A DNA stretch of 51,754 bases from the IMG/VR virus record IMGVR_UViG_2861038214_000004; one strand, written 5' to 3'. Shown in pieces: positions 24,728 through 24,747 of the stretch. A program made the translations under genes and the position numbers. This DNA comes from a virus (lineage: Duplodnaviria; Heunggongvirae; Uroviricota; Caudoviricetes). Position 1 is the first letter of the stretch; the number at the start of each line of letters is the position of its first letter. Below the pieces are notes generated by a model, which worked only from the letters and a program-made list of their open reading frames with translations, was not told the DNA's origin and did no database searches.

Positions 24728-24747
<20 letters not shown>
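23428..24747 (-). CDS. C: capsid assembly protease C; apparent GTG start
   Basis: 439 aa matching lambda C; first codon here is GTG preceded by AGGAGG; overlaps B 3' end. Confidence 0.85.

Follow-up and report, generated by a model that had tools for sequence, protein, structure and literature searches.

Where does translation of the prohead protease gene C begin in a lambda-like prophage whose C reading frame stays open back into the portal gene B? The locus considered here lies in a stretch of 51,754 nucleotides (IMG/VR virus record IMGVR_UViG_2861038214_000004; hereafter the window), in which the mechanically called open reading frame of C spans 23428..24882 and encodes 484 amino acids, 45 codons more at the 5' end than the frame that aligns with lambda C. 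The initial annotation had placed the start at a GTG codon aligned with the first codon of lambda C, within the 3' end of B, and had treated the GTG as a departure from lambda. Our analysis indicates that this codon, which we read on the minus strand as described, is very probably the authentic start of the lambda-type prohead protease C, and that both the codon and its context are those found at lambda nt 4418.

Gene C and its setting in the window

The window carries a lambda-like prophage in inverted orientation, with the tail genes leftward and cos/terminase, the early genes and int rightward. It is an integrated mosaic, which lambda itself is not: for each half, the best-matching single phage record reaches a coverage of only 64-79%, and the B/C junction is closest to Stx1a-converting phages, at 99.7%. 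The right half of the window also matches phages that carry an OmpD/NmpC-type porin gene. The head genes follow the lambda order, all on the minus strand (Table 1).

The product of C matches the Pfam family Peptidase_S49 (PF01343) over residues 150-297 with 150 bits, against a cut-off of 24.9, and its nearest solved structure is SppA (PDB 3rst/4kwb, E = 1e-21). The gene agrees with the lambda C family in its S49 domain, its full-length near-identity, its gene position and its nested internal start. The protease active site is presumably intact, as judged from a region identical to that of lambda gpC.

Table 1. Coordinates of gene C, its candidate starts and the neighbouring head genes in the window.
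Feature	Position	Strand	Remarks
Gene C CDS	23428..24747	-	439 aa + stop; S49-family prohead protease with C-terminal scaffold domain
C initiation codon GTG	24745..24747	-	Homologous to lambda nt 4418-4420
Spacer AGAAGA	24753..24748	-	6 nt, between AGGAGG and the C GTG
Shine-Dalgarno GAGGAGGAG	24752..24760	-	AGGAGG core at 24759..24754
45-codon 5' extension of the C frame	24748..24882	-	Inside B; read as open by chance and as contributing nothing to the C protein
Farthest upstream candidate, GTG at -45	24882..24880	-	First codon of the mechanical frame
First in-frame ATG of C, Met14	24708..24706	-
C codon 239, ATG	24031..24033	-	Equivalent of the GenBank lambda nu3 start, nt 5132; 201-aa product
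AGGAGG-GCGA-ATG at C codon 309	23821..23833	-	Conserved internal start, ATG at 23823..23821 (lambda nt 5342); 131-aa product MTKETQ...
Gene B, portal protein	24728..26329	-	533 aa; Pfam Phage_portal_2, 324 bits
B stop codon TAA	24730..24728	-
C/B overlap	24728..24747	-	20 nt, different frames
W	26326..26532	-	Upstream of B; A farther upstream
A homolog, terminase large subunit	26529..28454	-	Begins with GTG, like lambda A
D homolog	23086..23424	-	Downstream of C
E homolog	22005..23057	-	Downstream of C

Read 5' to 3' on the minus strand, the site is ...CAATCAACAGAGGAGGAGAAGA GTG ACA GCA GAG CTG CGT AAT CTC..., the sequence immediately upstream of and including the start being cAGAGGAGGAGAAGA-GTG. 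The AGGAGG that had been reported ahead of the GTG is present and forms the core of a longer Shine-Dalgarno (SD) sequence, which doubles as Glu-Glu-Glu codons in the C-terminal tail of the portal protein; the reported overlap of C with the 3' end of B was likewise borne out. In lambda as in the window, the C frame continues for 55 codons upstream of the GTG without meeting a stop. The initial annotation was right that the called frame extends 45 codons beyond the GTG, but the codon at its far end, which it took for an ATG, is a GTG, and there is no in-frame ATG upstream of the C GTG in the open stretch inside B. The upstream in-frame candidates are instead GTG at -45, TTG at -38, GTG at -33 and TTG at -13.

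Ribosome-binding strength of the candidate starts

To compare the candidates, the 20 nt preceding each of them were paired with the 3' end of 16S rRNA, and the duplex energies were set against a background of random 20-mers from the same strand, of which the 1st percentile is -9.8 kcal/mol. Pairing at the C GTG, at -12.0 kcal/mol, lies beyond this percentile and is by far the strongest among the six in-frame candidates; the upstream GTG and TTG codons gave -2.4, -4.3, -4.1 and -5.7 kcal/mol, and the Met14 ATG gave +1.2 kcal/mol. The C start thus has the form of an SD-led near-cognate start, that is, a GTG or TTG with an SD sequence 4-9 nt upstream. Across the whole window, AGGAGG-N4-9-(A/G/T)TG occurs 10 times against 5.9 expected, an enrichment that is not significant; window-wide enrichment of a motif is unsuited to a single site, and the energies of the individual candidates were used instead.

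The RNA from -70 to +50 around the C start folds no more stably than shuffled sequence (z = 0.15), and no Rfam family matched between positions 23000 and 27000 of the window. There is no support for a structured regulatory element at the C start, and the fold value leaves an obligatory coupling of C to B without structural support.

Comparison with phage lambda and public annotation

The contrast that had been drawn between MTAELRNL in lambda and VTAELRNL in the window does not hold. When recomputed from the whole RefSeq record, lambda 4418-4420 also reads GTG, at the 5' end of a gene C annotated as 4418..5737 in J02459 and NC_001416, and from -43 to +43 relative to this start the window matches lambda at every base. 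The M that databases give at protein position 1 is a convention for any initiator codon, read by fMet-tRNA. Lambda C has the same GAGGAGGAG SD and the same 20-nt overlap with B. The two proteins align over their full length without gaps, with 434 of 439 residues identical; five substitutions (S42R, T44M, Q244R, V260A and K389E) separate them, whereas the start site shows no differences.

Every public annotation that we examined agrees with this start. In UniProt the 439-aa product is entered as SCAF_LAMBD, "Capsid assembly protease C"; it has been called on at least 1000 contigs, so that the annotation of C, which the initial annotation had expected to be affected, is left unchanged. Records of phage 434 and of lambda imm434 also annotate a ribosome-binding site at the AGGAGG. 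Within the lambda RefSeq record, GTG starts 9 of the 73 CDS, including A, C and FII, and TTG starts one. About 14% of E. coli genes start with GTG (bioRxiv 10.1101/063800). There is no notable difference between C and ordinary GTG-initiated genes of E. coli and lambda, in which a near-cognate start is likewise read by fMet-tRNA. The GTG start of C is already known, is already annotated in lambda, and is ordinary.

Lambda C was also encountered at 99% identity in assemblies labelled Akkermansia, Chromatium, Kitasatospora, Shewanella, Pseudomonas, Neobacillus, Oceanobacillus and others (loci L130-L138, L141-L148 and others). The contigs concerned are often of low coverage, and three of them (one Shewanella and two Pseudomonas) have lengths of about 48.4-48.5 kb. 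These occurrences look like contamination with control or spike-in lambda DNA and not like real prophages.

Position of the start in homologous phages and prophages

In phi80, N15 and HK225, which are about 83-84% identical to the window in the DNA of the C start region, the aligned codon is ATG (GAGGAGGAGCAAG ATG GCG CAC GAG CTG CGT AAT), and a TGA eight codons upstream closes the C frame with no start in between. A further set of homologs was drawn from bacterial contigs, with one genome per species. All 16 enterobacterial prophage homologs (69-85% amino acid identity; from Dryocola, Buttiauxella, Enterobacter, Pluralibacter, Trabulsiella, Klebsiella, Citrobacter, Kluyvera, Phytobacter, Kosakonia and others) carry ATG as the aligned codon, preceded by either AGGAGG or GGAGG, and in each a stop lies one to eight codons upstream of that ATG. 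More distant relatives have ATG (Pseudocitrobacter, an Aeromonadaceae MAG, Marinobacter and a contig labelled Chryseobacterium) or GTG (Serratia and Cedecea) within three codons of the lambda-aligned position. Phage 4A7 also has a GTG within three codons of it, and a stop 12 codons upstream.

The C proteins of phi80, N15 (gp5), HK225 and the enterobacterial prophages therefore begin at the same place relative to the ELRNLPHIA motif, and their genes share with lambda the SD inside the portal tail, the overlap with the portal gene and the internal start at Met309. They differ in having ATG at codon 1, where lambda and the window have GTG; the portal-tail codon that contains the start's first two bases is Asp (GAT) in the homologs and Ser (AGT) in lambda. 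Across the homologs as a whole the position of the start is kept, with interchange among start codons only (ATG/GTG), and the distance from it to an upstream AGGAGG or GGAGG is likewise unchanged.

The segment between the GTG and the first in-frame ATG is also kept at the protein level. Residues 4-13 of C are retained among the relatives, and 3' of the B stop the differences between lambda and phi80/N15 are synonymous only (CTC/CTT, AGC/AGT). Residue 14 is Leu at two Trabulsiella loci, in Klebsiella BIGb0407 and in an Aeromonadaceae relative, and Ala in 4A7; with Met14 replaced in this way by Leu in four lineages and by Ala in 4A7, a general start at the first in-frame ATG is excluded.

One C homolog, in Trabulsiella odontotermitis strain 01 (L164), is interrupted: from the start the frame stays open for just 38 codons, and the length of the tblastn match, 1316 nt, is not divisible by 3. 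This suggests that the prophage is decaying and has acquired a frameshift, or that the sequencing was at fault.

Polymorphism around the start

IMG/VR was searched with the pattern GGAGGAGAAGANTGACAGCAGAGCTGCGTAA, in which the first base of the start codon is left free (N), and at least 120 related contigs were recovered. The pattern fixes the sequence from -11 to +19, so that within this interval only N can vary visibly. Among the 120 matches listed, N is G in 119, A in one, and C or T in none; as the contigs are closely related, this ratio is mostly a product of common descent and not of independent selection, and its use as evidence of selection for GTG was dropped for that reason. The only ATG variant among the 120 matches listed is an IMG/VR contig (L109, position 1175) in which the base change also makes the substitution S528N in B; this locus covers only 90 codons of C.

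The flanking variation is more informative about the frame under constraint. Among the 120 matches listed, 22 of the 30 variable sites in the 180 nt upstream of the GTG fall at position 3 of the B frame, which is position 2 of the C frame; this implies that the C frame is unconstrained in this stretch. On the other side of the B stop, 9 of 13 variable sites among the same listed matches fall at position 3 of the C frame. At the B/C junction, third-position periodicity in the B frame gives way to that in the C frame, and coding constraint on C begins at the GTG and not upstream of it. Moreover, the GTG at -45 is replaced by GCG in 25 of the 120 related contigs listed.

Weighing the alternative starts

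The length of the open frame makes it conceivable that C starts farther upstream, at the GTG of position -45 or at one of the other GTG or TTG codons inside B, in which case the protein could reach 484 aa. The open frame and its four candidate codons are real features of both the window and lambda, but the evidence set out above is against their use: SD pairing is weak at each of the four (-2.4 to -5.7 kcal/mol), the codon at -45 is lost from about a fifth of the listed contigs, the variable sites follow the frame of B, and in phi80, N15, HK225, 4A7 and the 16 prophage homologs the frame is closed by a stop 1-12 codons before the start. The Pfam matches, too, gain nothing from the extension. 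We consider a start in this stretch so improbable as to be negligible, in line with the initial view that the real start was unlikely to lie at the end of the upstream extension. At the other end, translation could begin at Met14, with the GTG and its SD as a by-product of B coding; Met14 is the first ATG in frame, and the SD does also serve as the Glu-Glu-Glu codons of B. This ATG is, however, itself without an SD, its Met is replaced by Leu or Ala in several lineages, residues 4-13, which it would discard, are conserved as protein with synonymous differences between lambda and phi80/N15, and the relatives have an ATG at codon 1. Initiation at Met14 is thus very improbable as well.

It might also be that several starts are used, the GTG as the main one and a second as a minor one, so that two N-terminal isoforms of gpC are made. 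Nested starts do occur in C, as the scaffold illustrates, and near-cognate starts can leak, though nothing specific points to such a pair here, and no alternative near the N-terminus is either conserved or led by an SD; we regard this arrangement as highly unlikely. Initiation of C at the GTG is, by comparison, a prediction that is strongly supported by SD strength, by the homologs, by polymorphism and by public annotation. A full-text search for an experimentally determined gpC N-terminus, in a literature of which coverage is incomplete, returned nothing relevant.

Proposed mode of initiation and its possible effect on dosage

From these features we propose that the strong SD near the end of B would position 30S subunits at the C start, where initiator fMet-tRNA would read GUG, so that the protein would begin with Met (MTAELRNL...). 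With this start placed 20 nt before the B stop, ribosomes finishing B would pass over it, a layout that may allow translational coupling of C to B. The near-cognate GUG would be expected to lower the output of C relative to ATG and may contribute to a low level of gpC. An effect of the GTG on the stoichiometry of C and Nu3, as raised in the initial annotation, is plausible in principle.

A more far-reaching idea is that in the lambda clade selection retains the GTG as a means of setting dosage, which would provide few copies of gpC per procapsid relative to the portal and scaffold, with the ATG-bearing relatives compensating in some other way. We think this rather unlikely. Were it true, an ATG variant, whether the natural one on L109 or an engineered one, would over-produce gpC and show a measurable defect in head assembly.

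The internal start of the scaffold protein Nu3

The initial annotation had also expected the GTG to affect the annotation of Nu3. It has no such effect, as Nu3 starts at a separate, internal in-frame ATG. Two codons come into consideration for this role. At codon 309 the SD duplex energy is -10.8 kcal/mol, and among 17 divergent homologs all have Met309 with GGAG at a fixed distance upstream, the Gly codon that supplies this SD being GGA in every one of them. At codon 239, in contrast, pairing is weak (-3.8 kcal/mol), and the residue is Ile or Leu in 14 of the 17 divergent homologs. The SD together with the retention of Met and GGAG in 17/17 homologs identifies codon 309, with its product of 131 aa, as the conserved internal start, and on these comparative grounds it is probably the true start of Nu3.

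Public records disagree on this start, which is given as 5132 in lambda, 5035 in lambda imm434 and 5131 in phage 434; the nu3 entry of phage 434 bears a note beginning "real Nu3 start...", and the phi80 record has no internal start annotated. Among gene-caller predictions, the 131-aa product appears on 165 contigs and the 201-aa product on six. Purified gpNu3 is reportedly about 13 kDa, in biochemical work by Ziegelhoffer and colleagues in 1992 and by Medina and colleagues in 2011. This size would match the 131-aa product from codon 309.

Implications

Little is at stake in the start of C itself: the GTG is already used in the lambda reference records, in UniProt and in automated annotation, and GTG starts are routine. 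For readers who work from sequence only, the locus carries the caution that an annotated "M" at position 1 need not mean ATG. More useful in practice than the C start is the discrepancy over nu3 in the lambda family, where RefSeq and GenBank place the start at codon 239 (201 aa), as against the conserved start at codon 309 (131 aa), which is probably the true one.
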